64,000 nt of DNA from Tardiphaga sp. (GTDB lineage: Bacteria > Pseudomonadota > Alphaproteobacteria > Rhizobiales > Xanthobacteraceae): NCBI RefSeq assembly GCF_025356345.1, contig NZ_JANXTC010000393.1, forward strand, positions 2,631 to 66,630, written 5' to 3'. The position numbers and the translations under genes are program-made. The notes under the pieces are model-generated. The model worked only from the letters and a program-made list of their open reading frames with translations. It was not told where the DNA came from and made no database searches. Below, piece after piece: positions 5,334 through 33,855 of this stretch (its first letter is position 1; every line of letters begins with the position of its first letter).

Positions 5334-5336
5334 GGC

Positions 5337-11372: not shown

Positions 11373-13175
<1,803 letters not shown>

Positions 13176-13178
13176 CGA

Positions 13179-13219
13179 CGTCCCGGCTCAGCCTTCGCTT
13201 CGCTCACTTGGCCGGGACG
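13179..13219. repeat. Short palindromic REP-like element between convergent genes
   Basis: CGTCCCGGC (13179-13187) ... GCCGGGACG (13211-13219) around a CTTCGCTTCGCTCACTT core. Confidence 0.6.
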
Positions 13220-13241
13220 ACATGGTGTGATTTTCGAGCGA

Positions 13242-14996
13242 TTACGCCGCACGCACCGATTCCAGGAACTTGCTGACTTCGGCTTTGAGGTGATTGCTCT
13301 CGCCCGATAGCGATTGCGCCGCCGCCAGCACCTGCGCCGACGCCGAGCCGGTCTCGCTGGCGCCGCGCTGCACGTCGGTGATGTTCGACGATACCTGCAT
13401 GGTGCCCTGCGCGGCCAGCTGCACGTTGCGGGAGATTTCCTGCGTGGCGACGCCCTGCTCCTCCACCGCGGAGGCGATGGTCGAGGCAATCTCGGAGATC
13501 CTGGCGATGGTGTCGCCGATCTCCTTGATCGCCGTCACGGATTCCCCGGTGGCCGACTGGATGCCGTGGATCTGCGTGCTGATCTCGCCGGTCGCCTTGG
13601 CGGTCTGCTCGGCGAGCGCCTTTACTTCCGATGCGACCACCGCGAAACCACGGCCAGCTTCGCCGGCGCGGGCCGCCTCGATGGTGGCGTTGAGCGCCAG
13701 CAAATTGGTCTGGGCGGCGATGGTGTTGATCAGTTCGACGACATCGCCGATGCGGGCGGCGGCCTTGGCCAGTTCGCCGACACGGTCATTGGTTTTCTGC
13801 GCCTGCTGCACGGCCTCGCCTGCGATGCGCGCCGATTCCTGCACGTGGCGGCTGATTTGATGGACGGAGGACGTCATATGCTCCGAGGCGGACGCCACCG
13901 ACTGCACGTTGCTGGAAGCCGCCTGCGAAACTTCCGCCACCGTCGCCGTCAACTGCCGCGCGTGCGCCGCCGTCGCCGTCAACGTCCCGGCCGAAGCCTC
14001 CAGTTCGGTCGACGCCGACGACACCGTTTGTACGATCTGGCCCACCGCGCTTTCGAAATCATCGGCAAGTCGGCGCATCTCGCGCTTGCGCTGTTCGGAG
14101 GCTCGGCCGGCCTGCTCGGCCTGTCGGTTCGCCTCCTGCACCGCGCGCTCCTGTGCCTTGAGCTTGAATTTTTCCACGGCGCCAGCGACGTCGCCGATCT
14201 CATCGCCACGGCCGAGGCCGGGCAGCACCGTCTCGAACTTGCCCTCGGCGAGTTCCAGCATCGATGTGCTGAGCGACCGCATCGGCCGGGCGATGGTGAA
14301 GACGCAGAACAGGCAAGTCCCGATCAGCAGCAGGACGGTCGCACCGGCGAGAACCGCGGTGGACTGCTCCGACGCTACCGTCCGCGCCACCGCTTCGGCT
14401 TGTGTCGCCTGGCTACGCTGCTTGCTGAAGTCGATAATGTCGGTGGCGATGGCCTCGATCTCAGAACTGGTGGGAACCATCTGCTGCGCGCGGATCGTTT
14501 CAATCCCCTCGTTAAGTTTGACAATGCGGGCAGCCTTGTCAGCATCCACGATCGCCTGCCCGGCGGTCAGCCCGATCGTCTCGGCCCGCAGCGCCACGAT
14601 CTGCTGGCGTCCCTTGGCGAGATCGGCGATCAAGCCGGTCAATTTTGAAATTCGCGCCTGGTTTTCCTGCGTTTTTGAGATCTCCGACATCTGGGCCAGG
14701 AATTCGACGGCGGTTTTTTGCCGGGCGGCGAAGTACTCATCCGCCTTGGGAAGGTCCGCGGCGACCTTCGCGCCCAGCACATCCCGAACCGCGGTCTGCA
14801 TACCGCGCGCCGAAGCTTTGATCTCCGCGGCGATCTGCGCCACGGTCATCTGCCGCAAGCCGACCTCGTAAGTGCCGCGAACCGCGGCGGCGCCGATCAT
14901 CTGGCTGTAGAGCATGAAGCCAGTCAGAGCGATACCAAGTACCGATGAAATTGCAAGCTTGGTTCCGATACGCAGGTTCAGGATGAAGCGAGTCAT
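13242..14996 (-). CDS. Methyl-accepting chemotaxis protein (array MCP1), helical periplasmic sensor
   Basis: TM-sensor-TM-HAMP (IARPM...[10 protein letters not shown]) and signalling tip [34 protein letters not shown]. Confidence 0.95.
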
Positions 14997-15049
14997 ATTT
15001 CCTCAAATGTATGATCAATGGTTCAGAGCGCAGCAGGCTGAATGACGCT

Positions 15050-17080
15050 TCAGGCCGCGCGTACCGAATCCAGAAAGCGGCCCACCTCGGCCTTGAGGCG
15101 CTGGCTGTCCAACGACAGCGATTGCGCCGCTGACAGCACTTGCGTCGAGGCCGAGCCGGTCTCGGAGGCGCCGCGCTGCACCTCACCGATATTCGAACTC
15201 ACCTGGGTGGTGCCGCGCGCGGCTTGCTGGACGTTGCGGGAGATTTCCTGGGTCGCCGCGCCCTGTTCTTCCACCGCCGAGGCGATGGTCGAGGCAATCT
15301 CCGACATCCGACCGATGGTGTCGCCGATCTCGCGAATGGCGCCGACGGACTCATGGGTCGCCGCCTGGATGCCGGAAATCTGCGCCGAAATTTCGCCGGT
15401 CGCCTTGGCGGTCTGCTCGGCCAGCGCCTTCACTTCGGAGGCGACGACCGCGAAGCCGCGACCTGCCTCCCCGGCTCGCGCCGCTTCGATCGTCGCATTC
15501 AACGCCAGCAGATTGGTCTGCCCGGCGATGGTGTTGATCAGTTCGACCACATCCCCGATCCGCGACGCCGCCTTGGCCAATTCGCCGACGCGGTCGTTGG
15601 TCTTGCGCGCCTGGTCCACCGCCTCGTTGGCCATGCGCGACGATTCCTGAACCTGACGGCTGATCTCATTGACCGAGGACGCCATTTCCTCGGTGGCCGA
15701 TGCCACGGATTGTACGTTGGTGGAGGCTTGTTCCGAGGCGGCGGCGACCGCGAGGGTCTGTTGCTGCGCGCGCGCGGCGGTCGCCGAAAGGGTGTTGGCG
15801 GAAGTCTCCAGTTCGGTCGAGGCCAAGGAAACGGTCTCGATGATGTCCCCGATCGCGCCCTCGAAATCGCCGGCAAGCTTGTGCATTTCCGCCTTGCGTT
15901 GCCCGGCCGCGCGCTGCTCGCTGAGCACGATCGCATCGGCTTCGGCGTGCGCCTTGCGCTCGGCATTTTCCTGAATCACGGTGATGGTCTTGGCCATGTC
16001 GCCAACCTCGTCGCCACGATCCGCGCCGGAAACGACGACCTCGATTTCTCCGGCCGCAATACGCCCCATCGCCGCGTTCAGACGCGTCATCGGCCGCGCC
16101 ACGCCCAGAAACGCAAACACCACGGAACCGACGATCGACAGCACCACCACCGCCGACAGCGCCAGGCTGATCTGGCTGGCCCGCAGCGACTCATTTGCGG
16201 CCAATTCCCGGGCCTCGGCCGCGGACTTTCGTGCCGTGACCAGCGACGCGCTAATCTGCTCGGACCCTTGATTTGCGGCCGGCAAGGCACGGGTTTGAAG
16301 CAAGGTGGCGGTGTTCTCCTCGATCTTGATCAGTTCCACCGTCGTCGCGATGAACGCCTTGGCGATCGGCGCGAGTGCCTCGATGGCGCCTCGCACCGCG
16401 GGATCTTCGGCAAGCGAACCGCCACGTGCGAGAATGTCGCGGACCCGAACTTCGCCGCCCGCGATCTTGCTCTTCAACTCCGGCTCGCCCGTGGTTGCAA
16501 AGCGCCAACTGGCGGCGGAAATCGCATTGAAGATGGCCGTTGCCTCATACACTTCACGCTCGATAGCAGCGCGGCCCGGGTCTTGCGTTATGCCTGGCAG
16601 GGCAAGCAGCGCTTCTTGTCCTGCGCTCCAACTGGCGGCCTGCGCATTGCTCACACCAAGCAGTTCGAACTTCCTGCGCCCCAGCCTTGCCAGTTCGTCA
16701 ACCGCGACGCTGTAATCGGCGACCAGCGATTTGATCTTTTCGAACCGCGCCTTGTTCTCGGCTTCCGGAGCCGCCGCGATCGCGGTATCCAGCGGCTTTT
16801 CATATAATGATTTGGCCACCGGAAGCTCGCCGACGCCCTTGTCGATATCGACCTGATTTTTGGCGTAACGAATATCCTTGCTCGCAAGCTGGACCCTGCG
16901 AAAGCCGATCGCGGCGGTGAGCGCCTGTTCGGAAACGGTCTGCTGCGCGTCCCGCCGGGCATTGAGGTCAGCCAGCGAGGCTTGGGTCATGCTCTGATTG
17001 GCAATCCCGCCAATCGACACGATAACGCCAACAAGTCCAGCCAAGCCAAGCTTGTATCCGATACGATTGATCTTGCTCAT
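15050..17080 (-). CDS. Methyl-accepting chemotaxis protein (array MCP2), large helical sensor
   Basis: 676 aa; two TM segments, HAMP (VARPMTRL...RGDEVGDM), conserved signalling tip. Confidence 0.95.
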
Positions 17081-17180
17081 GTTACCGCCTGTTGATGAAT
17101 GGTCAAACCGGACTTCTTGTTTGAACGACAGGGCTCCGGTGCCCCCGTCGTCTTTCGATCGGCACCGCGCCAGATATTGG

Positions 17181-18872
17181 CTACGCCGACCTTACCGAGT
17201 TGAGGAATTTGCCGACCTCCACCTTCAGCCGGTTACTGTCCGACGAAAGCGATCGCGCGGCGGAAAACACCTGCGACGACGCCGAGCCAGTGGCGCTGGC
17301 GCCGCGCTGCACGTCGGTGATGTTCGACGAAACCTGCATGGTGCCCTGCGCGGCCAGCTGCACGTTGCGGGAGATTTCCTGCGTGGCGGCGCCCTGCTCC
17401 TCCACCGCCGAGGCGATGGTCGAGGCGATCTCCGACATCCGGCCGATGGTGTCGCTGATCTCGCGGATCGCGCCGACAGAATCCTGCGTCGCCGCCTGGA
17501 TGCCGGAAATCTGCGCCGAAATTTCGCCGGTCGCCTTGGCGGTCTGCTCGGCCAGCGCCTTCACTTCGGAGGCGACCACCGCGAAACCGCGACCGGCCTC
17601 GCCGGCCCGCGCCGCCTCGATCGTGGCGTTCAGCGCCAGCAGATTGGTCTGCCCGGCGATGGTATTGATCAGTTCGACGACATCGCCGATCCGCGACGCC
17701 GCCTGGGCTAGTTCGCCAACACGGTCGTTGGTTTTGCGCGCCTGATCGACGGCCTGGTTGGCGATCGTGGAAGATTCCTGCACCTGGCGGCTGATCTCGT
17801 TCACCGAGGAGGCCATTTCCTCGGTAGCCGAAGCGACCGATTGTACGTTGGTCGAGGCGGCCTCGGAAGCCGTGGCGACCAGCGTGGCCAGCTGCTGCGC
17901 ACGTTCCGCCGTGGCCGTGAGCGTCCCCGCGGATGCCTCGAGTTCAATGGAAGAGGAGGACACGGTGTCGACGATCTCGCCGATCTTCGCCTCGAAATCC
18001 CGGGTGATGCCATCGACGCGACGGCCGCGTTCAATCTTGCTGTCGGCCTCGGCCATCGCGGCTTCATCCGCCACCTTCTTGTCGATCAGCGCCTGCTTGA
18101 AAATCTGCAGCGCATCGCCCATCGAACCGATCTCGGTCTTCATGCCCTGATGCGGCACCATCGCGGTCAGATCGCCGGCGCCCAGCGCCTGCATCGGCGT
18201 GACGATCGAGGCGATGCCGCGCGAGACGTCGCGGACCAGGTAAATGCCGATGCCGATGCCAAGCACCGCTGCGACTCCGAGCAGGCCGGTCAGCATGACA
18301 AATGCCGTGCGGTAATTTTCGGAAGCGATGCGTCCGGCGGCGTCAGCCGCCTTGTTGATGAGTGCGATGTCCATTTCGAGGATTGCATCGGCCGCCTTGC
18401 CGATATCATTGACGGTCGTCTGGTTCAGCACCTGGGCATCACGGATGCTTTTATCAATGCTGTTGCGGGACATGACCAGCACCTGCTCCGCGCTCTTCAT
18501 GTACTCGGCCCACTTGTCGCGCCAGCCATTGTAGATCCCGCGTTCCTCGGCCGAATTGATCAGGCTCTCATACGTTGCGCGCAGGGTCGCCTCCTCGTTG
18601 ATGGTGGCGATCAACCTCTTTTCCATCGCCTCCTTCTCGGCGGCGGTATCGCCCAGCATGTGGGCCCGTACCGTGGTCCGGTAGGTGATGGTGTTGGCCT
18701 TCAGCGCTCCCAGGACCCGGACGCTCGGCAACCAGCGGCTGCTCAGTTCGGTGGCGCTGGCATCGATCATCTGCATTCTGCCGACGGCCAACAGAACCAT
18801 CCCGGTCATGGCCAGCAATAGAACAGCGATGACGCTCGAGATCTTGGCGCGAATGGAAAGGCTGGCGAACAT
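17181..18872 (-). CDS. Methyl-accepting chemotaxis protein (array MCP3), four-helix-bundle sensor
   Basis: LSIRAKI...[11 protein letters not shown] pattern typical of 4HB MCP sensors, HAMP, conserved tip. Confidence 0.95.
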
Positions 18873-19131
18873 ATCAATCCCTCAATCGGGGTGTCGGGCA
18901 CGTGGCACGACGAAAATCGGTGTTTGACGGCTAAATCGCCGTGGCGTCATACAGAAATCAACAGTCGAAAACGGATCTCGACATCAACGTCGCGTCCACA
19001 GCATGGTGGTATTTGGTTAAGAAGCAGTTCCGCATGTTTAGAGCATCGGCCTTTGCTTGCTCGATGCCCCTTTCTTCCACCATTCGAGGGCGCGCGGCCG
19101 GCAAGGCCGACCCGACGCCGGCCACGGAAGC

Positions 19132-19556
19132 TAGAGCGGGATGGCTTTATAATAATTCGTATCACTGGCCCCGTCATTGCGAGTTCGGTACCGGCCTTTG
19201 GCCGATCCTGAGATATGAAAGATAGGGTTCGTGTCCCGGACGCGGTGCGGCATTCTCAGGCGATGCCCTTGCATCGCCGCCATGCCGCTCCGCAGAGCCG
19301 GGACCTTATCAGGCAACGACGTTTTTGGCGGTCCCGGCTCTGCGGCGCATGACGCCTCCTGCGGAGGCGCATTGCGCCGCGTCCGGGACAAGTGCCCTTT
19401 CTTCCGAGGAGCGCTTGCGACGAAGCAATCCAGTCTTCTTGCTTGTGGCATGCTGGATTGCCGCGTCGCTTCGCCAAGGGGAAAGCCAATGAGCTTTCCC
19501 TGACCTCGCAATCACGGGGCAGAAGTTGCGAACCAGATTAAACGCTTCCGGCTCTA
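19132..19556. mobile_element. Composite nested palindromic MITE/REP-like element
   Basis: TA-bounded. Left end TAGAGCGGGATG-N25-CCCCGTCATTGCGAG (19132-19183); right end CTCGCAATCACGGGG-N25-CTTCCGGCTCTA (19505-19556). Several internal hairpins. No transposase ORF. Confidence 0.65.
19231..19390. repeat. Inner inverted-repeat element nested in the composite element
   Basis: Termini TGTCCCGGACGCGG (19232-19245) / CCGCGTCCGGGACA (19377-19390); inner arms CCGCAGAGCCGGGACC / GGTCCCGGCTCTGCGG; small hairpin GCGCATGACGCCTCC-TGC-GGAGGCGCATTGCGC. Confidence 0.75.
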
Positions 19557-21247
19557 AGCCGCCCGTACCGACCGCAGAAATTTTCCGACTTCGGCCTTCA
19601 GGCGGCCGCTGTCGGATGACAGCGACTGCGCGGCGGAGAACACCTGCGACGACGCCGAGCCGGTCTCGCTGGCGCCGCGCTGCACGTCGGTGATGTTCGA
19701 CGAAACCTGCATGGTGCCCTGCGCGGCGAGCTGCACGTTGCGGGAGATTTCCTGCGTGGCGGCGCCCTGCTCCTGCACCGCCGAGGCGATGGTCGAGGCG
19801 ATCTCCGACATCCGGCCGATCGTGTCGCCGATCTCCCGGATCGCGCCGACAGAATCCTGCGTCGCCGCCTGGATGCCCGAGATTTGCGTCGAGATTTCAC
19901 CGGTCGCCTTGGCCGTCTGCTCGGCCAGCGCCTTTACTTCCGACGCCACGACCGCGAAGCCTCGGCCGGCCTCGCCGGCGCGGGCCGCCTCGATCGTGGC
20001 GTTCAGCGCCAGCAGATTGGTATGCCGGCGATGGTGTTGATCAATTCGACCACGTCGCCGATCCGCGCCGCGGCTTTCGCCAATTCAGCCACACGATCAT
20101 TGGTCTTGCGCGCCTGATCAACCGCCTGACCAGCGATAATCGAGGATTCCCGCACCTGACGGCTGATCTCGTTCACCGAAGAGGCCATTTCCTCGGTGGC
20201 CGAGGCGACCGACTGAACATTGGTCGAGGCGGCCTCGGAAGCCGCGGCGACCATCGTTGTGAGTTGCTGCGCGCGCTCGGCTGTCGCCGTCAGCGTGCCG
20301 GCCGATGCCTCCAGCTCGGTCGAGGCGGACGACACGGTATTGACGATATCGCCAATCGTCGCCTCGAAATCACGGGTGATGCCATCGACGCGGCGGCCAC
20401 GCTCGATCTTGGCACTGGCATCGACCATGGCGGTTTCATCCGCCGCCTTCTTGTCGATCAGCGCCTGCTTGAAGATTTGCAGCGCGTCGCCCATCGCGCC
20501 GATTTCGGTCTTGACGCCCTGGTGCGGCACCACCGCGGTGAGATCGCCGGCGCCCAGCGCCTGCATCGGCCGGATGATGGAATTGATCCCGCTCGACACG
20601 TCGCGCACAAGATAGACGGCAAGGCCGATGCCCAGCACGGCCGAAAGGCCCAGCAGCGTCGTCAGCATCATCAACGCCGACTCATACTCCGCCGCGGCCG
20701 CCGCGCCGGCGGTGTCGGCGCCCTTGTTGTTGAGGTCGATATCCTTGTCGAGCAGACGGTCCGACAACTGACCCATCGGAATAACCTTGGTCTCGTTCAG
20801 ATCCTGGGCGTCCTGCGGAAACCGGCCGACGCTCTGGTTGGACAATGCCAGAATTTCCAGTGACGCTATCTTGTAGACGTCCCATCGCCGCGCCCATTCG
20901 TCGTAAATCGACCGTTCCTCCGGCGACGAAATCAGTTTTTCATAGCGCGTGCGAAAGTTCGTCAAATTGGCGACGAAGGTCGCCAGCCGTCGTTCCGCGT
21001 CCGCCTTGGCCTCGGCCTTGGGCGACAACAGGTGACCGCGAATGACGTTGCGGTAGGAAGCAACGCTGCCACGCATCTCCCCCAATATGCGGACGCTCGG
21101 TAACCAGCTGGCCTGGATTTCAGCCGCATGCGCATTGATCGCATGCAGGTTGCGAATGGCCAGAAAACCCATGACCGACATCGCGAGCAGCAGGAAAGAA
21201 ACGACACTGATAATCTTGGTTCGGATCGAAAGGCTGGCAAGCATCAT
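19554..21247 (-). pseudogene. Frameshifted chemoreceptor (array MCP4), 4HB sensor; pseudogene or assembly error
   Basis: ORF 20003..21247 derails after INTIAG and ORF 19554..19949 carries the rest. At 20021-20027 the gene reads GCC GGC ATA CC AAT where paralogs read GCC GGG/GGC CAG ACC AAT, i.e. one base is missing. Confidence 0.8.
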
Positions 21248-21385
21248 TCAAAAATCCCCCGGTCATGACCGTCGGCGAGTAGCTCAGCTAATTGACTTCT
21301 TGATTGTCAGCCCGGGCATCGACACGACCAACCGGCAGAGGGAAGGAGCCGGTACGATGCACCCGCTCCTGTACTAGCCGCCATC

Positions 21386-23143
21386 TTACGCCGCGCGCAC
21401 CTGACCAAGGAACCGCCCGAGTTCCACCTTCAGCCGGTTGCTGTCCGACGACAGCGACTGCGCCGCCGACAGCACCTGCGACGAGGCCGAGCCGGTCTCG
21501 GAAGCCCCGCGTTGCACGTCGGTGATGTTCGACGACACCTGCAGCGTGCCCTGCGCGGCCTGCTGCACATTGCGGGAAATCTCCTGCGTGGCGGCGCCCT
21601 GCTCCTCCACCGCCGAGGCGATGGTCGAGGCGATCTCCGACATCCGCCCGATAGTGTCGCGAATTTCCTTGATGGCGCCGACCGATTCCTGCGTCGCCGT
21701 CTGGATGCCGGAAATCTGCGCGCTGATTTCGCCGGTCGCCTTGGCGGTCTGCTCGGCCAGGGCTTTCACTTCCGATGCCACCACCGCGAAGCCGCGGCCG
21801 GCCTCGCCGGCGCGCGCCGCCTCGATCGTCGCGTTCAGCGCCAGCAGATTGGTCTGCCCGGCGATGGTGTTGATCAGTTCGACGACGTCGCCGATCCGCG
21901 ACGCCGCCTTGGCCAGTTCGGCCACGCGATCATTGGTCTTGCGCGCCTGCAACACGGCGTGGTTGGCGATGGTCGAGGATTCCTGCACCTGGCGGCTGAT
22001 CTCGTTGACCGATGAAGCCATTTCCTCGGTCGCGGACGCCACCGACTGCACATTGGTCGAGGCGGTCTCGGAGGCCGCGGCCACCATGGTCGTCAGTTCC
22101 TCCGCGCGCGCGGCGGTGGCGGTCAGCGTGCTGGCGGAAGCTTCGAGCTCGGTGGAGGCCGACGACACCGTATCGACGATTTCGCCCACCGCGTTCTCGA
22201 AATCATCGGCCATCTTGACCATCTCGCGCTTGCGCTGTTCAGCGGCGTCGCGCTCCTGGTTCTGCTGGGCCACGGCCTCGGCATGGGCGCGCTCCCGCGC
22301 CTTGACCTTGAACTTCTCCACGGCGCCGGCGACGTCGCCGATCTCGTCGCCGCGGCCGAGCCCCGGCAGCACCACGGCGAAATTGCCCTCGGCGAGGTCG
22401 TTCATCGCGACACTCAGCTCGCGCATCGGCCGGGCGATGGCGAAGACGGAAAACAGCCAGGTACCGACCAGCATCAGCGCGGTCACGATGGACAGGATCA
22501 GCGAGATCTGGTCGACCGATGCGATTTTCGCATCGGCCGCGGCCTTCGCCGCTTCGCCCCTCGTCTTCGCAGTTTCGGTAATCTGATCGGACAGCGTATC
22601 GATCTCGGCGCTGACAGGAAGCGTCACTTCGCGGCGAATCCGCGGAATTTCGTCAGCTAGCTGGGTGATCCGGGTCGCGCCCTCGGTGGTCAGTTCGCCG
22701 GCATTCCGCTTAGCGATCAGTGAGACGGCTTCCTTGCGCACCGCTTCGATCCGCTCTTTGCCCCGTGTGAATCGGGTAATCGCTGCTTCAAGTTGAGCAG
22801 CGCGGTCGCGATTCTCATTAGACTGCGTTCGGCTTGCAACATCAGCGATGAACCGGCGGGCGGATTTTTCATTTTCCGCGTAAGTATCCGAGGCCTTCTG
22901 GATGTCAGCGGGGCTCTGCGAAAGAATCATTTCCCGGAGACCAAGTTGCATGCCGCGCGTGAAGGCCTTGGCTTCGGCGCCATCCAAGGCCACGGCCACG
23001 CTGCGCGCGGCATTGGCATTGGTCAGGGCCACCTCCGCGCTGCCGTTGATCTGCAAATAGATCATCAGGCCGAGCAACAGGATGCCGATGGCGGATGCGA
23101 ATCCGAGTTTGGTGCCAATGCGCAGGTTCTGAATCATGGTCAT
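21386..23143 (-). CDS. Methyl-accepting chemotaxis protein (array MCP5), sensor paralogous to MCP1
   Basis: NLRIGTKL start, KAFTRGMQ, IARPM HAMP, conserved tip. Confidence 0.95.
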   Translation of the reverse strand: MTMIQNLRIGTKLGFASAIGILLLGLMIYLQINGSAEVALTNANAARSVAVALDGAEAKAFTRGMQLGLREMILSQSPADIQKASDTYAENEKSARRFIADVASRTQSNENRDRAAQLEAAITRFTRGKERIEAVRKEAVSLIAKRNAGELTTEGATRITQLADEIPRIRREVTLPVSAEIDTLSDQITETAKTRGEAAKAAADAKIASVDQISLILSIVTALMLVGTWLFSVFAIARPMRELSVAMNDLAEGNFAVVLPGLGRGDEIGDVAGAVEKFKVKARERAHAEAVAQQNQERDAAEQRKREMVKMADDFENAVGEIVDTVSSASTELEASASTLTATAARAEELTTMVAAASETASTNVQSVASATEEMASSVNEISRQVQESSTIANHAVLQARKTNDRVAELAKAASRIGDVVELINTIAGQTNLLALNATIEAARAGEAGRGFAVVASEVKALAEQTAKATGEISAQISGIQTATQESVGAIKEIRDTIGRMSEIASTIASAVEEQGAATQEISRNVQQAAQGTLQVSSNITDVQRGASETGSASSQVLSAAQSLSSDSNRLKVELGRFLGQVRAA

Positions 23144-23537
23144 GACGTTCCTCGGAATGGAATTGTCGAAATTCGGGACAGCCGCGATCGCAAGCAGGAG
23201 CGGCGGCGCGGCCGGCGCTTGGCGATTGGCGGGTCGTGATGATCGGCGGAGCGTTGTTGTGTCGGCGCTGCCTGCGCCGCATGGTCAATGAATTGAAGAA
23301 AACATTATAAAATAGGGCGGTGTGGGGCCGCGAATATCGGAACCGATGCCGGTTTCCTCATTCGACGGCTTAAATCGTTATGAAGAACATAACACCACAG
23401 ATCTAAAACGGTGGTTAACGGCGGCGTTCCATCATCGCTAAAAAGCAGCCCGGGCGACTGCGATCTACCGAAGTCACTCTGCAGGCACCGGCCGCCATCG
23501 CCGCCTCGACAGCCCGATGAGGCGGCACCGCGCCGGA

Positions 23538-25262
23538 CTACGCCGCCCGCACCGAGTGCAGGAACTTGCTGACTTCCTGCTTCAGCCGGTTGCTTTCCGA
23601 CGACAGCGACTGCGCCGCCGACAGCACCAGCGACGACGCCGAACCGGTCTCGCTGGCACCGCGCTGGACATCGGCGATATTGGACGTGACCTGGGTGGTA
23701 CCCTGCGCCGCCTGCTGCACGTTGCGGGAAATTTCCCGGGTCGCGGCGCCCTGTTCCTCGACGGCGGAGGCGATGGTCGACGCAATCTCCGACATCCGTC
23801 CGATGGTCGCGCCGATTCCCTTGATCGCACCGACAGAGTGCTGCGTCGCGGCCTGAATCCCGCTGATCTGCGCGGAGATCTCGCCGGTTGCCTTCGCGGT
23901 CTGTTCGGCCAACGCCTTCACTTCGGAGGCCACCACCGCGAAGCCGCGGCCGGCCTCCCCGGCACGCGCCGCCTCGATCGTGGCGTTCAACGCCAGCAGA
24001 TTGGTCTGGCCAGCGATGTTGTTGATCAACTCGACAACATCGCCAATCCGTGAAGCGGCCACGGCGAGTTCGGAAACGCGATCATTGGTGTGCTGGGCCT
24101 GTTCGACCGCCTCGCCCGCGATACGCGCGGATTCCTGCACTTGACGGCTGATCTCGTTGACCGACGAGGCCATCTCCTCAGTGGCCGAGGCGACCGACTG
24201 CACATTGGTCGACGCCACTTCCGAGGCGTCGGCGACCAGATTGGTCAATTGCTGCGAACGCTCCGCCGTCCCGGACAGCTTGCCAGCCGAAACCTCCAAT
24301 TCGGCCGATGCCGAAAAGACCGCATCAACGATCCTTCCGACCACGCCTTCGAACTGGTCGGCCATCCGGATCATGTCCTGACGGCGCTGCTCGACGCTCA
24401 GCGTCTCGGCTTCGATTTGTTCGGTCTTCATCCGCTCGACCTCAAGCCCGTTGGACTTGAACACCGCGAGCGCTGATATGATCTGGCCAATTTCATCGCG
24501 GCTGCGGTGCACCGGCAGGTCGGCTGACAAATCACCCGCGGCCAGCCGGTTCATCGTCGCAATACTTGCTTTCAACGGCCGGGCGACGCCGTTACGCGCG
24601 GCCAGATAGCTGGCGACGATCGCAAGCGCCATGACCAGCAGGGTGGCAGAGATGATCGTCCACAGCGTCTCCTGCGCCGTTTCCAGGAAGTCGACTTTCT
24701 TGAGACCGACATACAGAATGCCGATCACCTGCCCGCTGGCATCGAGGATCGGATCATAGGCCGTCATGTACGGCTCTTCGAGAATTTTCGTCTCGCCACG
24801 AAACGACGTCTTGCGGTCGAAGATCGCCGCATAGGCCGCGTTGCGCGCCAGTTGCGTACCGACCGCGCGCGTGCCATCCGGTTTCATCACATTGGTGGTG
24901 ATCCGGGTATCATTCATGAAGATCGTGCAGGTGCCGCCGACCAGGCTCTTGACCTTGTCGACAATGGCCGTGTCGCCGTTCAGCACTTGTCCGTTCCGCA
25001 GCAATTTGCCGTCAGCGATGCTGAAATCCTTGCCTTTGGAACCAAGTACCTCCCATGCCACCCGCAGATTGGTTTCAACCCGCTCGGTGGCGGCCCTGCT
25101 GGCACCGCGGTCCAGCACGTACCAGGCAACGCTGGTCACGCAGATGCCCAAAGCGAGGATGCCCGAGATCAAGAGCAGCATGATCCGGGGTACGAGGCCA
25201 AAAACGGTGCGCGCGTGGGAAACTTCCGGTTCCGGGGCGAAAGCCATGTGCTGCGATGACAA
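23538..25262 (-). CDS. Methyl-accepting chemotaxis protein (array MCP6), Cache-type sensor
   Basis: [38 protein letters not shown] and [22 protein letters not shown], typical of Cache-family sensors; conserved tip. Start 25262 (TTG) or 25247 (ATG). Confidence 0.93.
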
Positions 25263-25554
25263 TTAAGATCTCCGTACAGACAGGTGGCGTGCCGCCTGTG
25301 GAATCGCAGGAGGACACGTCAGCGCAATAGATTTCGAAGCAAAAAATGATCGATCAGCAGTTATCGGCAGAGCCCCCTCCGCAATCAATCGCGCACGGAT
25401 ACTCGCATCCGTAGTCTCACGCTATACGGTTAAGTACTTGCTTATTTTATGATAGCACGCGGTGATGTGTCGTATTGATCATCGATCAAAAGAAAGGCGT
25501 GTCGCCCGGTCACGATCGCCTCATTGAGCGATCGTGATGTCCGTTGGGTCGATA

Positions 25555-27558
25555 TCACGCCGCCCGCACCGATTGCAGGAACCTGCTGACTTCCTGCTTC
25601 AGCCGGCTGCTTTCCGACGACAGCGACTGCGCCGCGGAGAGCACCTGCGACGACGCCGAACCGGTCTCGCTGGCACCGCGCTGGACATCGGCAATATTGG
25701 ACGTCACCTGGGTGGTACCATGCGCCGCCTGCTGCACGTTGCGGGCGATCTCCTGCGTCGCCGTGCCCTGCCCGTCCACCGCGGAAGCCACGCTTGACGC
25801 GATCTGCGACATCTGTCCGATCGTATCGCCGATCGCCTTGATCGCGATCACCGATTCATCGGTCGCGCTCTGAATGCTACTGATCTGCATTCCGATCTCG
25901 CCGGTGGCACGCGCGGTCTGCTCGGCCAGCGCCTTCACCTCGGACGCCACCACGGCGAAGCCGCGACCGGCATCGCCGGCGCGCGCCGCTTCGATCGTCG
26001 CGTTGAGGGCCAGCAGATTGGTTTGTCCCGCGATGGTATTGATCAGTTCGACGACCGCGCCGATCCGGCTCGCCGCCTTCGACAGTTCGGCGACCCGGTC
26101 ATTGGTAGTCTTCGCCTGGGCCACCGCCGCATTGGCGATGCGTGCCGATTCCTGGACCTGGCGACCGATCTCGGTGATCGAGGTGGACATTTCCTCGGTG
26201 GACAACGCCACCGATCGAACATTGGTGGAAGCCTCCTCGGACGCCGCGGCGACCATGGTGGTCAGCCGCTGCGAGCGCTCCGCGGTCGATGTCAGCGTTC
26301 CCGCCGAGGCTTCGAGCTCGGTCGAGGCTGACGACACCGTCTCGATGATCTGGCCCACCGCGCCTTCGAAATCATCGGCCAATTTTATCATCTCGCGCCG
26401 GCGCTGCGCGGCGGCGGTCTGGTCCTCGGCGATCCTGGCTGCCGCCTCGTCACGCGCCTTCTGCTCCGCCCTGACCTTGAAGGTCTCGACCGCCTGCGCC
26501 ATGTCGCCGACTTCGTCCCGGCGGCCGAGGCCGGGCAACACCACGCCGAAATCACCATCGGCCAGTCTTTTCATGCCGGCGGTCAGACCCGCGAGCGGAC
26601 CGATGATGCCCCGCGCGATCAAGAACGCAATCAGCAGCCCGCAAATGGCGGCAACGGCGGCGACCGCCTGTTGGGTCGTGATGGTGCCGGTGATCTTCTC
26701 GTCGGTCAGCGCGGCGTTGGTCGTGAACGACCGCTGCGACGACGCCTTGACGGTGTCCATCTTTTCGATGGCGACGATGATGGTCGGCGTCACCGACTTA
26801 TAGAACAGCTCGTCCATCATCAACAGATTGACCGACGCCTTGTCGAACACGTTCGAATAGCTCTTCAGATTGGCCTTGATCATGCCGAACAACGCCTCGA
26901 GGCTTGCCGGCATATCCAGTTTTTCCAGCTCGGCGATCTGCTTCTGTGCGTTGCCGATACTGGTCTTGAACTGCATCAGGCTGCCCTGGTCGCGACTGGC
27001 GAGAAATCGCCATTGGGCAACCTGGACCAGCAGCGTTTCCGACTGCAGGCTTGTCGCTCCCTGGGCGAAAACAGTATTGCGCGTGGCAATGACCAGCTTC
27101 TGCAGCCCGCTCGTCAGTTTCTCGCTTTCGCCAAGCAAAGCGGCGCGGCCATCGACCATCAATTTGACAGTGTCGCCGAGATCGAGCCGCATGCCTTTCA
27201 GGTCCGAGACGCTCTTGTCGATCTCGCGGTACACCGCGCGACGATCTTCCTGCCGCACCAATCTGATGGCGACTTCCAGCAGGCTGCCAACATTGTCCAG
27301 CAGCCTTCCGGACTCCTGATAGGAGGCCTGGTCCTGGTCAAAGATGAATCGCAGCATCGCCCGGCGCATCGATTGCAGCTCGGCGGCAATCTCGACCGAT
27401 CGCAGGGTGTTGGCCGAGCCGACATTCATCGATCGAACCTGACCGCTGATATCGCTGAGTTGCCACACTGAAAATCCCGCCATGGCGGCGCCGAACATTA
27501 CCAGCGCGCCAAAGCCCGCATAGAGACGACCACGAATTCGGAGACGAAACAGCGACAT
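25555..27558 (-). CDS. Methyl-accepting chemotaxis protein (array MCP7), large helical sensor
   Basis: [14 protein letters not shown]1, about 270-aa helical periplasmic region, HAMP (GIIGPL...RRDEVGDM), conserved tip. Confidence 0.95.
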
Positions 27559-27680
27559 GCGATTTTCCTTGATCAGCGCGACGGTCCGGATGCAACAGAA
27601 GAGCCGAGACGGGACGAAGAACGACGGTGTATAATTACCATCGAAACTCTAACCTGCCCGTTAACGTGGTAGGCGGCCTG

Positions 27681-27773
27681 CCAGAGCGGGATGACCTCAA
27701 GATGAATCGGTGTCCCATCCCCCGTCATTGCGAGGTCAGTGATTTGGACTAAACTAAAGTCATCCCGCTCTGG
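27681..27773. repeat. Short member of the same composite repeat family
   Basis: Perfect 15-bp terminal inverted repeat CCAGAGCGGGATGAC / GTCATCCCGCTCTGG enclosing CCCCCGTCATTGCGAGGTCAG. Confidence 0.7.
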
Positions 27774-27872
27774 TATCAGAATGAAGCATCGCCAGATCAG
27801 CCCCGATGGATCGGCGCGCCACGGTGTCCATGCGGATCACCGCGGTCCGCGAGGCCGCGATAGACCTTCCCG

Positions 27873-29903
27873 CTAGGCCGCGCGCACTGAGTCCAGGAAC
27901 CTGCCGACTTCGGTCTTCAGCCGAAGGCTTTCACCGGACAGCGACTGCGCCGCCGACAGCACCTGGGACGACGCGGATCCGGTTTCCCCGGCACCGCGCT
28001 GGACATCGACGATGTTGCTGCTGACCTGGGTGGTACCGCTCGAGGCCTGCTGGACGTTGCGGGAAATCTCTCTCGTCGCCGCGCCCTGCTCCTCGACCGC
28101 CGAGGCGATAGTGGAGGCGATTTCCGACATCCGGCCGATCGTATCGCCGATCTCCTTGATCGCTCCGACGGATTCCCGCGTCGCGGCCTGAATGCCATGG
28201 ATGTGCTGGCTGATATCGCCGGTGGCTTTGGCTGTCTGCTCGGCCAGTGCCTTGACCTCCGAGGCGACCACGGCGAAGCCGCGCCCGGCATCGCCGGCGC
28301 GCGCCGCCTCGATCGTGGCGTTCAGCGCCAGCAGGTTGGTCTGGCCGGCGATGGTGTTGATCAGTTCGACGACATCGCCGATCCGCGCCGCGGCCCTGGC
28401 CAGTTCACCGACGCGATCATTGGTCTTGCGAACCTGATCGACGGCGGCGCTGGCGATGGTCGAGGATTCCTGAACCTGGCGGCTGATCTCGTCGACCGAC
28501 GACGCCATTTCCTCGGTCGCGGATGCGACCGATCGCACATTGGTGGCGGCCTCGTCCGAGGCCGCGGCCACCATGATGGTGAGTTGCTGGGTTCGCTCCG
28601 CGGTCGCCGTCAGCGTCCCCGCGGATGCTTCGAGCTGCGTCGAGGCGGACGATACCGTCTGAACGATGTTGCCGACGGCATTCTCGAAATCATCGGCCAG
28701 CTTGACCATGTCGCGCTTGCGCGATGCCGCGGCCAGCTGGTCGCGACTGACCGACGCGGCGGCTTCATCGCGCGCTTTCTGCTCGGCGTTCTCGCGGATC
28801 ACGGAAACCGTCTTGGCAATGTCGCCGATTTCATCGCCGCGCCCGGCGCCGGGGATTTCGAGGTCGAGGTCGCCCGCCGCCATCTTCGCCATCGCGCCGT
28901 TCAGCCGCGTCATGGGACGGGCGACGCCGAGGAAGGAAAACAACATGGTGCCGATCAGAACCGCGACGACGGCCAGTCCCAGTGCCCGATTGACCAGGCC
29001 CGACCGCGCCAATTCGTCGGCCGCCCCGGCGCGTGCTTCCACGGTCGATTTCTGCGCCGCGGCCACGGCGGCGGCGATCAGCGACGACGCGGCCTCGCCG
29101 GCGGGAGCAGCCTTGGTATCGGTGATGCTGGTTTTCAGGTCATTGATGTTGATGGCTTCGCTGGTGGCCGACATGAAGCGCTTCATATCCGTGCCCAGCT
29201 GCGTCAGGCCGGCCTGTACCATTTCGTTCTCGTCGACGACGCTGGCGCGTGCCAACGCATTGGTCAGCGCGCTGCCGTATTTGGTGATCAGTGCTTTCTG
29301 CGGAGCCTCGTTCATCGCGGCATAGCGCCAGGCCGCGGCACGCACCGCGTTGATGGCGATGTCGGCGTTCCGGAGCTGGACGTTCACTTCGGCCCAGCTC
29401 GCCGTTTCGACAATGGCCGTGGTCGCCCGCATCTGTTCGAGATGGCGATCCCAGTCGAGGGCGGCGACATTCCGTGTCCGGTACAGTTCGAGCAGCTTCT
29501 TCTGCAGGCCGACAATTTCAGCGGCGCTCGCGACATATTCGCCGGCCATCGCCTTGATCCTTGCGAACCGCTCCTTGTTGGCCGGCTGTACCAGCAGGGC
29601 TATCGTCGCATCCAGACTCTGGTCCTGAGCCGCCTTGGCGGCCTGGATATCAGCATTGCCCTTGTCTACCTGCGAGGTGGTGATAGCCGTTCGCACGCTG
29701 CGCGTGGCAAATCGCATATTGCCGAGCTCGAACTCCACCATCCGCGCGCTATCGGCGATTTTCTGCTGCACCTCGGCATGACGGTTGGCCTCGTTGATTG
29801 AACCTTCCGTCCGCATCTCGTTTATAACAAGTCCACCCGCAAGCAGGATGCCTACGACACCGGCCAGCCCCAACTTGTTTCCGACGCGGTTGAACGTGAT
29901 CAT
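27873..29903 (-). CDS. Methyl-accepting chemotaxis protein (array MCP8), sensor paralogous to MCP2
   Basis: 676 aa like MCP2; [11 protein letters not shown] start, AAWRYA vs MCP2 [19 protein letters not shown], conserved tip. Confidence 0.95.
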
Positions 29904-30049
29904 CTCAATCTACTTTCCGGAAGTTGACGAAAGGTCGAGCCAAGGCACCGACCGCGGCGAACGACCATCGGTCTTGCTATCTACATCTATGGTCGAAGGT
30001 GCGCGGATTCTGGAGGTGGCCGCGGCGGACATGCCCGTTGGAGAAGTCC

Positions 30050-30111: not shown

Positions 30112-30206
30112 AGGTTACAAAATACCAGCGAGACCTGATACAATCGTTAATTTTCCGCAATGCGGCACAGTAAATGACGCATAGCCGACATGCGCGGGCG
30201 CAACCT

Positions 30207-30944
30207 CTAATGCGACAGGATCTTAGAGAGAAACTGCTGCGCGCGTTCGCTGCGCGGGCTGCCGAAGAAATCGTCCTTGTTGGCGTCCTCGACGATCTCG
30301 CCAGCGTCCATGAAGATCACGCGGTTGGCGACCTTCTTGGCAAAACCCATTTCGTGGGTCACGACCATCATGGTCATGCCTTCGCGGGCCAATTCGACCA
30401 TGACGTCGAGCACCTCGTTGATCATTTCCGGATCCAGCGCCGAGGTCGGCTCGTCGAACAACATGCAGATCGGGTCCATCACCAGCGCCCGCGCAATGGC
30501 GACGCGCTGCTGCTGGCCCCCCGAGAGCTGCCCCGGATATTTCTGCGCGTGCGCCGTCAGGCCGACGCGGTCCAGCATCTTCATCGCCTTGGCCGTCGCG
30601 GAGTCTTCCGAACGGCCGAGCACGCGGGTCTGGCCAAGGCATAGATTTTCGACGATGCGCAAATGCGGAAACAGTTCGAAGTGCTGGAACACCATGCCGA
30701 CGCGCGAACGCAGTTTTGGCAGATCCTTTTTCATGGTGGTGACGTTGAGCCCGTCCACGGTAATGGTGCCTTCCTGCACCGGCTCCAGCGCGTTCACGGT
30801 CTTGATCAGCGTCGACTTGCCCGATCCCGACGGGCCACAAACCACTACCACCTCGCCCTTGTCGACGGCGGTGGTGCAGTTCTTCAGCACCTGAAAGGTC
30901 GGGTTGTACCACTTGCTGACATTGTCGATGGTGATCATGGGCAT
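30207..30944 (-). CDS. Polar amino-acid ABC transporter ATP-binding subunit (GltL-like)
   Basis: Walker [35 protein letters not shown]. Confidence 0.95.
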
Positions 30945-30988
30945 GGGGATCGACCGGATGTTGGAGACACGGATAAGGCTCAGATGGA

Positions 30989-31684
30989 CTAGCGGATGAT
31001 GCTGATGCGCTTGCCCAGCCGCTTCACGAAGAACGACGCGGTAAAGCAGATCACGAAATAGACCACCGCCGCGAACAGATACATTTCAGTAAGGCGGCCG
31101 TCGCGCTGCGCCACCTTGGACGCGGCGCCCAGGAAGTCGGTGATCGACAGCACGTAGACCAGCGAAGTGTCCTGGAACAGCACGATGGTCTGGGTAAAGA
31201 TCACCGGCAGCATGTTGCGGAAGGCCTGCGGCAGCACCACGTAGCGCATCACCTCGCGGTAGTTCAGGCCGATGGCGTAGCCGGCCATCACCTGCCCGCG
31301 CGGAATCGACTGGATGCCGGCGCGCATGATCTCGGAGAAGTACGCCGCCTCGAACAGCGTGAAGGTGATGATGGTCGACGAATAGGCGCCGACCTGCACC
31401 GGCTGGTCGGCGCGCATGATCCATTGCCCGATATAGGGCATCAGGAAGTAGAACAGGAAGATCACCAGCACCAGCGGCAGCGAGCGCATCAAATTGACGT
31501 AGCTCGCCGCGAAGGTCGACAGCACACTGTTCGACGACAGCCGCATCAGGGCGACCAGCGTGCCGAGGATCAAACCGCCGACGGTGGCGATCACCGTCAG
31601 CGTCAGCGTGAAGGTCATGCCCTGCTGGAACAGATAGGGAAGGCTGCGCCAGATGACGTTGAAATCGAAATCGCTGAACATCAC
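30989..31684 (-). CDS. Polar amino-acid ABC transporter permease (GltK-like)
   Basis: [39 protein letters not shown]. Confidence 0.92.
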
Positions 31685-32415
31685 GCCTTACCCCCGTTGA
31701 AGCCGGGGATGACGAGACGCTTCTCCGCATAACGCATCCCGATCGTCACCACCGCGCTGAGCGCGAGGTAGATGACGGTCGCGGCGGTGAAGGCCTCGAA
31801 GACCTGGAACGAGAACTCCTGCATCGAGCGCGCCCGCGCCGTCAGTTCCAGCACGCCGATGGTCAGCGCCACCGCGGTGTTCTTGATGGTGTTGAGGAAT
31901 TCGGAGGTCAGCGGCGGAAAGATCACGCGGTAGGCCAGCGGAAGCAGAATGTAGCGATAGGTCTGCACGGTGGTGAGGCCGATCGCGGTGCCGGCCATGC
32001 GCTGCCCCTTGGGCAGCGAATTGATGCCGGCGCTGACCTGGGTGGCGACGCGCGACGACATATACAGCCCGATGCCGATCACCGCCGTGTAAAACGGACC
32101 GTTACGCAGCTGCTTGACCCAGGTGCCGAGATCCTGCGGGAGCAATTCGGGAACGACGAAAAACCAGATGAACAGCTGCACCAGCAACGGAATGTTGCGG
32201 AACATCTCGATATAGGCGTTGCCGAGAAACACCGGCCATTTCGATGGCAAGGTACGGATGATGCCGATCAGCGAGCCGATCACGAAGGCAATGGTCCAGG
32301 CGCAGATCGCGGTCAGGATCGTCACCCCCAGCCCGCTCATCAGCGTGCTGAAATAAGTGCCGGTCGCTTCAGGCGTCTGCTCCCAGAAGATTCCCCAATT
32401 CCAGTTATAATTCAC
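31681..32415 (-). CDS. Polar amino-acid ABC transporter permease (GltJ-like)
   Basis: GTG start at 32415 after GGGGGA; NYNWNWGIF, EMFRNIPLLVQLF, FPPLTSEFLNTIKN. Confidence 0.92.
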   Translation of the reverse strand: MNYNWNWGIFWEQTPEATGTYFSTLMSGLGVTILTAICAWTIAFVIGSLIGIIRTLPSKWPVFLGNAYIEMFRNIPLLVQLFIWFFVVPELLPQDLGTWVKQLRNGPFYTAVIGIGLYMSSRVATQVSAGINSLPKGQRMAGTAIGLTTVQTYRYILLPLAYRVIFPPLTSEFLNTIKNTAVALTIGVLELTARARSMQEFSFQVFEAFTAATVIYLALSAVVTIGMRYAEKRLVIPGFNGGKA

Positions 32416-32448
32416 GACTGTCCCCCGCGACGTGCGCCTTGGCCGGAA

Positions 32449-32477
32449 CCCATGCAATGGCTGGGCCATTGCATGGG
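32449..32477. other. Intercistronic hairpin between binding-protein and permease genes
   Basis: 13-bp perfect stem CCCATGCAATGGC / GCCATTGCATGGG with a 3-nt loop and no U-tract. Confidence 0.6.
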
Positions 32478-32489
32478 CAGTGGTCGTCG

Positions 32490-33404
32490 TTACATCGCGT
32501 AGGCGTCGGGATCAGCCGAATCGGAGGGCTTGGCAAACGCCTTGGTCTGCTCGGTGCCCATCGGCACGTTCAGGTTCAGGCCCTTGGGCGGAATCGCCTG
32601 GGTGAACCACTTGTCGTACAGCTTCTTGCCATCGGCACTGGTGTACAGCGCGGCGGTCGCGCCATCGACGACCTTCTTGAACGGCACGTCGTCCTTGCGC
32701 AGCATGATGCCATAGGGCTCGGGCTTGGAGAACGCATCCTTGGAGATGACGTATCCGGTCGGATCCTTGGAGCCGGCGGCGAGGCTGGCGAGCAGGATAT
32801 CGTCCATCACGAAGGCGACGGCGCGATCGGTCTCGACCATCAGGAAGGCTTCGGCATGGTCCTTGGCGGCGATGATGTTGATGCCGAGGTTGCGCGCGGC
32901 GTTGGCTTCAGTGAGCTGCTTGATATTGGTGGTACCGGAGGTGGAGACCACCGACTTGCCCTTGAGGTCATCGATCGCGCTGAGCTTGCTGGACTTCTTC
33001 GAGACGAAGCGGCTGGCGGTCAGGAAGTGGGTGTTGGTGAAGGAAACCTGCTTCTGGCGATCGACATTATTGGTGGTCGAACCGCATTCGAGATCGACGG
33101 TGCCGTTGGCGATCAGCGGAATGCGGGTCGCGGAGGTCACCGGGTTCAGCTTGACCTCGAGCTTCTCGAGCTTGAGGTCGGCTTTCACGGCGTCGACGAT
33201 CTTGTAGCAGATGTCCATCGCGAAGCCGACCGGCTTCTGATTGTCATCCAGATAGGAGAACGGCACCGACGAATCGCGGAAACCGATAGTGATCGCACCG
33301 GTGTCCTTGATCTTCTTCAAGGTACCGGTCAGCTCCTGCGCCTGAGCCTGCCCCGCGCAGATCGCCATGGCGACCACGGTGCCCAATAGGTGAATGCGTT
33401 TCAT
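32490..33404 (-). CDS. Glutamate/aspartate-type ABC substrate-binding protein (GltI-like)
   Basis: ATG at 33404 after GAGGAG; signal peptide; TLKKIKDTGAITIGFRDSSVPFSY, RIPLIANGTVDLECGSTTN, FVMDDILL. Confidence 0.92.
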   Translation of the reverse strand: MKRIHLLGTVVAMAICAGQAQAQELTGTLKKIKDTGAITIGFRDSSVPFSYLDDNQKPVGFAMDICYKIVDAVKADLKLEKLEVKLNPVTSATRIPLIANGTVDLECGSTTNNVDRQKQVSFTNTHFLTASRFVSKKSSKLSAIDDLKGKSVVSTSGTTNIKQLTEANAARNLGINIIAAKDHAEAFLMVETDRAVAFVMDDILLASLAAGSKDPTGYVISKDAFSKPEPYGIMLRKDDVPFKKVVDGATAALYTSADGKKLYDKWFTQAIPPKGLNLNVPMGTEQTKAFAKPSDSADPDAYAM

Positions 33405-33855
33405 GTACCCTCTCCTCAACTGTTCAACCCGGACCGGCCGCCTGCCACTTTGGGATGAGCGCCCCGGTCCGCCGTTCGGGATGCTTGCACAATCGGGGCC
33501 AAAACGGAATTGTACGGAAGGTGGTTTGTCGGGGATGTCGCAGCACGGTAAATCCCGGTGATGAGCAACGCCCTTCATGCCCCCTGCGACGTCGTCGCCG
33601 CACGCGCCGCAACGTCGGCGAATAGTCCGGCCGGGTCATCGTTACCTTGATGACGCTGATCTTTTTGTTGTACGGCGCATCATCGTCGTGATCGGCTTCA
33701 AGCTGGTGCCGCGGATCGGCACCGGGGCCAATTATTGCGCTGCCGGCGATGGGGTTGATCTCGCTGGGAATGGCCGGCACGAACAGGCCGCCGAATTTCT
33801 GGACAAATGCCGCGCGATCCAGCGCAGCATTGAAACGAACGCGAAGCCTTCAAGG

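Follow-up and report, generated by a model that had tools for sequence, protein, structure and literature searches.

Are long runs of chemoreceptor genes static relics of old duplications, recent imports, or places where receptors continue to be gained, lost and recombined? This question is raised by a locus of Tardiphaga sp. (Alphaproteobacteria, Xanthobacteraceae; RefSeq assembly GCF_025356345.1), in which eight genes for methyl-accepting chemotaxis proteins (MCPs), here numbered MCP1 to MCP8, occupy positions 13242–29903 of a 64,000-nt stretch of DNA (contig NZ_JANXTC010000393.1, positions 2,631–66,630). This whole stretch is referred to below as the window, and the run of eight genes as the array. 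The array lies in a slot bounded by a carbamoyltransferase gene and a polar amino-acid ATP-binding cassette (ABC) operon, both of which are retained in other Tardiphaga genomes. Based on comparisons of this slot across the genus, we consider it probable that it is a chromosomal hot spot of chemoreceptor birth, death and recombination in Tardiphaga.

Listing of open reading frames (ORFs) and Pfam scans identified eight MCP reading frames, arranged head to tail on the minus strand. HAMP and PF00015 domains were matched in each of the eight proteins, the latter with 107–114 bits against a cut-off of 34.6, and the hairpin motif is present in their alignment. Two hydrophobic segments around a periplasmic sensor were read by eye from the translations. 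The methylation-helix motifs ATEEMASS and AVEEQGAAT, recognized by reading of the sequences, are conserved across the alignment, and the Glu/Gln methylation motifs appear to be kept in the methylation helices. The gene coordinates in the original prediction, which had been made from the DNA letters alone, proved exact, and no other protein gene lies between the receptors; a 126-aa ORF at 19131–19511 was rejected as spurious, being inside dispersed repeats and lacking a Pfam match. No tRNA or Rfam RNA was found within the array. Eight of the ~43 MCPs of this 5.3-Mb genome are packed into 16.7 kb, a density far beyond chance.

We defined the slot as the interval from the carbamoyltransferase gene to the ABC operon, and counted its MCPs in the 15 congeners in which a single contig carries both flanks. 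The flanking proteins themselves are 82–91% identical to those of the window in 18 congeners (carbamoyltransferase) and 79–92% identical in 17 (the solute-binding protein of the ABC operon). The slot holds two MCPs in G014 and G023, three in a group that includes G041, four in G020 and G005, and five, six or, in G013, seven in the others, with up to seven copies also in congeners whose genomes are complete. A sixteenth genome, G011, a fragmented draft from the nearest clade, carries at least seven slot MCPs over two contigs. The eight receptors of the window are the largest run seen in the slot. An MCP8-like gene stands beside the ABC operon in every congener slot examined. MCP7-like genes form two orthogroups (E7a and E7b), genes with four-helix-bundle (4HB) sensors form at least four, and MCP5-like genes occur in some genomes, with orthologs 63% identical in G020 and ~44% in others.

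Gene order differs as well. Read from the ABC side, the window (G000) has the order B8-E7a-D6-A5-Cd(broken)-C3-B2-A1, where D6 is MCP6, B2 is MCP2, A1 is MCP1, and C3 is MCP3, whose sensor has no close orthogroup partner in the sensor tree. The order is B8-E7a-A5-Ca in G020, B8-E7b-E7a-A5-Cb-Ca-Cd in G013 and B8-E7b-E7a-A5-D6... in G011, the E7b and E7a of G011 being assigned by full-length identity to MCP7 and not from the sensor tree. MCP6 is ahead of MCP5 in the window and behind the MCP5-like gene in G011. Orthologs of MCP6 (64–70% identical) were found in ~19 congeners, mostly at other loci and in the slot only in G017 and G011. Those of MCP2 were found only in G041, at another locus in a two-gene array with a 4HB MCP (62%), and, at 57%, in a genome from one other genus.

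Two further arrangements were observed in passing. In G009, whose ABC operon lies elsewhere in the genome, an MCP8-like gene beside the carbamoyltransferase is split into a 333-aa sensor ORF and a 359-aa signalling ORF (positions 3744–5773 of L015, G009:C1:5989400-6009300), and is probably a receptor pseudogene. In a related organism, a JGI contig (L027; JGI 3300048928, contig Ga0496125_0000890) carries at 2144–13206 a further array in head-to-tail order, in which at least six MCPs were counted (five 4HB and one MCP8-like), among them an 85% ortholog of MCP4; its context is different, with a sugar-kinase-like gene as the upstream flank.

The variation in the slot bears on the explanation that the array is an old, essentially static cluster, in which ancient paralogs stayed together, species differ by loss only, and the likeness of the signalling domains reflects purifying selection. 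Such a cluster would explain why the sensors of the paralog pairs are far diverged (37% identical for MCP1/MCP5, 31% for MCP2/MCP8 and 46% for MCP3/MCP4), why third codon positions of the signalling half are just 53–69% identical between array copies, and why all 32 genomic MCPs of the same class have a highly constrained signalling domain. It also fits the order MCP6-MCP5-MCP4-spacer-MCP3, which is the same in two conspecific metagenome contigs from the European Nucleotide Archive (ENA) whose DNA matches that of the window at 99.1% and 98.4% identity; over short time spans the locus is stable, with order kept among near-identical strains. However, copy numbers ranging from 2 to 8, orthogroups restricted to certain lineages, the differing position of MCP6 in G000 and G011 together with its presence at other loci in most congeners, and the separate site of MCP2 in G041 all speak against stasis, and we regard it as unlikely. 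An identical array without change in copy number or order, which the original prediction had named as the sign of an old static cluster, was not found in the relatives, where the slot holds 2–7 MCPs and both content and order differ.

The two halves of the receptors point in the same direction. Separate trees of sensors and signalling domains, a comparison suggested in advance, disagree across 64 array receptors. E7b sensors form one clade (support 100), whereas their signalling halves are split, part of them grouping with the neighbouring MCP8-like genes and part with E7a. In the window, MCP3 and MCP4 are paired in the signalling tree with their sensors in different groups, and the last ~300 nt of the two genes are 96–99% identical. 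In G013, the receptors m1 and m2 have unrelated 4HB sensors and signalling DNA that is 90–98% identical. Approximately unbiased (AU) tests, on groups that were defined once the sensor trees were known, rejected E7b, C-b and C-a as clades of the signalling tree (p = 0.0006, 0.025 and 0.0005, respectively). This rejection of congruence, and the near-identical signalling DNA beside unrelated sensors in G013, are likewise at odds with a static cluster. Moreover, several pairs in the window share runs of 19–36 concordant polymorphic sites that were never or rarely reached by permutation, in a test that ignores site-rate heterogeneity, and exact in-register runs between copies measure 17–89 nt. Over the 855 nt of signalling DNA, array copies are 74–86% identical, rising to 93% over 300-nt blocks. 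The codon composition of this shared half is unremarkable, with G and C balanced at four-fold sites.

How old are the copies? Recent tandem or segmental duplication of MCP1/MCP5 and MCP2/MCP8 was rejected on the divergence of their sensors (31–37% identical), and MCP2 is no nearer to MCP8 than it is to the MCP8 orthologs of other species. The earlier statement that simple tandem duplication fails to explain the order of the pairs, which are not adjacent, is borne out for recent events; the interleaved pairs themselves cannot be recent, given their sensor identities of 31–46% and the divergence at third codon positions. On these identities, the duplications that produced the pairs predate the genus. 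Strong concerted evolution of the type known from Campylobacter jejuni was rejected on the same third-position values and on the DNA identity over 855 nt.

Several points weigh against a hot spot, besides the naming of the AU groups after the fact and the rate heterogeneity that the runs test leaves aside. Because third codon positions are only 53–69% identical, most duplications are ancient and homogenization is weak, and much of the protein similarity needs no explanation beyond purifying selection. In the signalling tree of the genome, the array's eight receptors share a clade of 17 members with nine dispersed MCPs and are not monophyletic; the array therefore does not evolve as a closed unit. 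No event has been captured while under way: the closest species in the sample share only ~90% identity in the flanking proteins. For MCP6, an empty-site test would require the flanks of the site used by congeners, and in this draft these flanks lie at contig ends (C162 and C299). Finally, the heptad class, pathway assignment, ligands and promoters discussed below are inferred.

A second alternative is that the slot served as a landing pad, in which MCP1-MCP2, and perhaps MCP6, were gained horizontally or by transposition beside the carbamoyltransferase gene. The narrow distribution of these genes would suit it: no ortholog of the MCP1 sensor exceeds 46% identity in 33 genomes of the genus or 250 of the family, a 95% identical protein being found in an ENA metagenome, and MCP2 has only the two relatives given above. 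Repeats resembling miniature inverted-repeat transposable elements (MITEs) are also present in two spacers. We nonetheless consider such gain quite unlikely, since GC content is uniform along the locus (0.61–0.65), no integrase or transposase Pfam domain was found in the 38 of 44 window ORFs scanned, the signalling halves of MCP1 and MCP2 lie inside the genome's own 17-member clade, and the two proteins are distant members of the sensor families of MCP5 and MCP8, respectively. The lack of integrase and transposase in the scanned ORFs, the even composition and the restriction of small dispersed repeats to two spacers also set the array apart from mobile cassettes, integrons and islands. The original prediction had called the locus a receptor-diversification locus and a sensory repertoire cassette; the former description agrees with the variation in number, content and order and with the recombined halves, while the latter does not hold in the sense of a mobile cassette.

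MCP4 differs from the other genes of the array in being split between two ORFs, 20003–21247 (414 aa) and 19554–19949 (131 aa). Relative to the other seven copies, it lacks one nucleotide between 20024 and 20023 and carries a changed base (G>T) at the next-but-one position, both changes falling in the codon of an invariant Gln of the signalling domain. The deletion leads to a premature TGA at 20005–20003, just past INTIAG, and the signalling domain resumes in another frame up to 19554. The two near-identical ENA contigs encode an intact MCP4 of 564 aa (P0015), and the lesion is therefore particular to this strain or a consensus error of this assembly. Programmed frameshifting or phase variation was rejected, as the site has no homopolymer or slippery sequence and the conspecific copies are intact. 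Aligned with those copies (L025/L026), MCP4 of the window shows 18 differences over 1695 positions and no large chimeric block. Three of the 18 (window 20006–20012) cluster within 30 nt past the frameshift and match MCP3; they could mark a tract of micro-conversion or a local fault in the consensus.

The position of this lesion, exactly in the most conserved segment of the repeat and next to MCP3-like differences, and the 432 contigs of the draft, might suggest that the array or its size is an artefact of a metagenome-derived assembly, with chimeric joins made through the repeated signalling DNA. This is extremely improbable. The array copies differ by 7–26% in DNA and are separable by assemblers, complete congener genomes hold up to seven slot copies, and the comparison of MCP4 with its conspecific counterparts gives no sign of a large chimera. 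Two independent assemblies reproduce the local order MCP6-5-4-spacer-3 at 98.4–99.1% identity, and the array is not an assembly artefact.

The receptors differ in their sensors. The grouping of the sensors into 1/5, 2/8 (both proteins of 676 aa) and 3/4 was recognized from the outset and is upheld by the identities given above; the 4HB type of MCP3 and MCP4 and the Cache type of MCP6 are upheld by Pfam. MCP3 and MCP4 matched 4HB_MCP_1 (PF12729) with 53 and 77 bits against a cut-off of 27, and MCP6 matched sCache_3 (PF17202) with 120.8 bits against a cut-off of 28.8. When searched alone, the sensors of MCP1, MCP2, MCP5, MCP7 and MCP8 gave no significant Pfam match, even at E=5. An AlphaFold (AF2) model of the MCP1 sensor (mean predicted local distance difference test score, pLDDT, 90.7) has four helices, and its closest folds are the ligand-binding domains (LBDs) of PcaY_PP and MCP2201, with template modelling (TM) scores up to 0.84; by its modelled fold, it would be a divergent 4HB, and its paralog MCP5 is likely 4HB-like. 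The model of the MCP8 sensor (pLDDT 91.7) has six helices and resembles most closely McpS-LBD (2YFA/2YFB, TM 0.62–0.75) and TorS. We therefore describe MCP8 as putatively HBM-like, that is, helical and bimodular by fold, with no match to the Pfam HBM family even at E=5, and its paralog MCP2 is presumably of the same type. The tally would be four 4HB sensors, two HBM-like, one sCache_3 and one, the putatively helical sensor of MCP7, without a family. Four sensor groups, MCP1/5, MCP2, MCP7 and MCP8, lie outside Pfam recognition; for two of them, confident models show 4HB and HBM folds. An exact-protein look-up with MCP3 found no record.

In contrast to the sensors, the C-terminal 285 residues can be aligned across all eight proteins with no indel, at 72–93% identity. 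Counted from the Glu of the hairpin to the last residue, the C arm is 138 aa long in every one of them. As far as the conserved Phe it measures 131 aa, which is seven residues (one heptad) more than in Tsr of Escherichia coli (36H), while the C arm is 21–22 residues (approximately three heptads) shorter than in TM1143 of Thermotoga maritima (44H). Based on C-arm length, we tentatively assign the array signalling domains to class 38H, a class defined by 19 heptads in each arm of the cytoplasmic hairpin. None of the eight bears an xWxxF pentapeptide; all end in xVR(A/S)A straight after the last helix. The absence of a pentapeptide had been predicted correctly, but the stated SVRAA or SVRSA ending does not extend to MCP5, which ends in QVRAA. 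Nor is the ending a trait of the array: 32 of 40 genomic MCPs have the same 138-aa C arm and an xVRAA end, and ending and missing pentapeptide are therefore traits of the genome's main receptor class and not of this locus. Pentapeptides are found on only ~10% of MCPs (PMC7390727).

As the eight proteins share one gap-free signalling domain, they would most likely form one receptor array and feed one Che pathway. Receptors of class 38H have been linked to F5-class Che systems, two clusters of which occur in Bradyrhizobium diazoefficiens (PMC8429497). The absence of che genes from the 64-kb window, noted earlier, was confirmed. CheA and CheW were found on contigs C409 and C227, with CheY, CheB and CheR alongside, and the lone receiver protein encoded past the ABC operon, a candidate CheY, was ruled out as such because it is CpdR (NCBIfam equivalog). 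One other genomic MCP ends in the pentapeptide-like DWKQF. This soluble-looking protein of 400 aa is encoded on contig C183 next to ORFs of 305, 219, 353 and 376 aa (the whole group at 208–5148), provisionally regarded, by their size and order, as CheR-, CheD- and CheB-like proteins and a second MCP-like protein; C183 may thus hold a third, different chemosensory cluster of the genome.

The spacers between the genes, from MCP1 to MCP8, measure 53, 100, 681, 138, 394, 292 and 314 nt, and 303 nt lie upstream of MCP8. Segments of the repeat nest in the MCP4-MCP3 spacer have 30–180 genomic copies each, and the repeats of both affected spacers contain CTCGCAATGACGGGG ... CATCCCGCTCT ends. Each long spacer holds one TTAAC box, 106–275 nt ahead of the start codon, and five of the six minus-strand TTAAC sites in 13001–30400 (17.4 kb) fall in the five long spacers. 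The box of MCP8 is part of a motif, AATTAACGATTGYRTCAG-N7-8-TGGTAT, that is conserved genus-wide upstream of MCP8 orthologs. TTAAC is also present upstream of 18 of 40 genomic MCP genes, the background being 0.12 per kb. TTAAC(C) resembles what we take to be an alphaproteobacterial CtrA half-site, and the boxes may be promoter elements of the CtrA type or of some other motility regulon. Their distribution suggests that at least five promoters are in use, and that MCP4, MCP2 and MCP1 are each read through from the gene upstream of them, giving the units MCP5-4 and MCP3-2-1. A scan for sigma-70 promoters and terminators found such sites no more often than in shuffled sequences; two terminator-like hairpins lie directly past the stops of MCP6 and MCP7. 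The neighbourhood of the array also includes a ninth MCP 13 kb away, which has the 138-aa C arm and SVRAA end of the array proteins and no recognized sensor domain. The coordinates of these features are collected in Table 1.

Table 1. Features of the chemoreceptor locus and its surroundings (window coordinates; REP, repetitive extragenic palindromic).
Feature	Position	Strand	Description or basis
MCP1, 584 aa	13242..14996	-	sensor without Pfam match, HAMP, MCPsignal
MCP2, 676 aa	15050..17080	-	sensor without Pfam match
MCP3, 563 aa	17181..18872	-	4HB_MCP_1 sensor
MCP4, split in this assembly	19554..21247	-	4HB_MCP_1 sensor
MCP5, 585 aa, ends QVRAA	21386..23143	-	sensor without Pfam match; MCP1 paralog
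MCP6, 574 aa from TTG start (ATG at 25247)	23538..25262	-	sCache_3_3 sensor
MCP7, 667 aa	25555..27558	-	sensor of ~265 aa without significant Pfam match; orthogroup E7a
MCP8, 676 aa	27873..29903	-	sensor without Pfam match; adjoins ABC operon
Nest of REP/MITE-like dispersed repeats, ~430 nt of the 681-nt MCP4-MCP3 spacer	19113..19540		blastn against own genome
Short repeat element in MCP8-MCP7 spacer	27681-27773		~20 genomic copies
TTAAC boxes	19016-19020, 23414-23418, 25429-25433, 27660-27664, 30146-30150	-	one per long spacer, TTAAC(C/G)
Left flank: carbamoyltransferase (NodU-like)	11373..13175	+	Pfam, NCBIfam
Right flank: polar amino-acid ABC operon (ATPase, two permeases, SBP_bac_3 binding protein)	30207..33578	-	Pfam
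ABC-operon binding protein gene	32490-33578
tRNA-Val(GAC), past ABC operon	34852-34926	-
CpdR cell-cycle response regulator	35032-35391	-	NCBIfam equivalog, 189.5 bits, above equivalog cut-off
mmgR/suhB small RNA, past ABC operon	37199-37276	-
Ninth MCP, 491 aa	42696-44171	-
Mg-chelatase-like AAA protein, VWA-domain protein, porphobilinogen deaminase; left window end	27-3797	-

Head-to-tail clusters of chemoreceptor genes away from che operons have a precedent in the tlpA-mcpA-tlpB-mcpB cluster of Bacillus subtilis, which, unlike the Tardiphaga array, comprises four genes with one dCache-type sensor family. To our knowledge, no comparison of its copy number across species is available. In C. 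jejuni, the group A receptors Tlp2, Tlp3 and Tlp4 are paralogs with sensors ~30% identical and a shared signalling module, and the tlp4/tlp11/tlp12/tlp13 locus holds alternative receptors depending on the strain, with varying gain, duplication and pseudogenization (PMC9769880, PMC5063009). The signalling domains of Tlp2, Tlp3 and Tlp4 are identical (PMC9769880), whereas those of Tardiphaga are 72–93% identical in protein and 74–93% in DNA, with only short identical tracts, and exchange in Tardiphaga is weaker and older than this homogenization. Tardiphaga further differs in having eight genes with four sensor folds in one array, and in varying between species rather than strains. The paralogous receptors PctA, PctB and PctC of Pseudomonas aeruginosa have likewise diverged in ligand range (PMC6974571), but all three have one dCache sensor type, while the Tardiphaga array is much larger and mixes 4HB, HBM-like and sCache sensors. 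The structural matches of the modelled sensors, McpS of Pseudomonas putida for MCP8 and the 4HB receptors PcaY_PP and MCP2201 for MCP1, are only 10–13% identical in sequence, and their ligands are not transferable to the Tardiphaga sensors.

Based on these findings, we propose a plausible course of events for the hot spot that we favour. The fixed slot contains a conserved anchor receptor, MCP8 with its putatively HBM-like sensor, and a variable run of further receptors. All eight would be transmembrane MCPs that share one signalling domain, probably 38H, and act on a single Che pathway encoded elsewhere and probably of the F5 type, each adding a different periplasmic sensor; by analogy with 4HB, HBM and sCache receptors, the ligands are probably organic or amino acids. 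The 0.85 kb of signalling DNA, 74–93% identical with exact runs of 17–89 nt, could serve as homologous sequence at which neighbours undergo unequal crossing-over and short gene conversion, which would alter copy number and shift signalling halves among sensors. The same process may permit the capture of receptors from other loci, for which MCP6, with orthologs elsewhere in most congeners, and MCP2, in the separate two-gene array of G041, are candidates.

A bolder version, possible but doubtful, treats the signalling DNA as a portable recombination handle, through which the slot captures outside receptors and grafts signalling halves onto new sensors, while five promoter units with CtrA-like TTAAC boxes tie expression to the cell cycle. 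If this were true, the array would extend itself by collecting 38H receptors of the genome and would parallel, in bacteria, the birth-and-death chemoreceptor arrays of animals. Tandem MCP paralogs that share a signalling module are already known, and the locus is of value as a large, well-bounded example and not as a new principle. How repertoires are built and reshuffled in bacteria with 40 or more chemoreceptors is poorly documented, and a natural series of two to eight receptors in one slot, with halves that are measurably uncoupled, would be usable for studies of receptor gain, loss and chimera formation.

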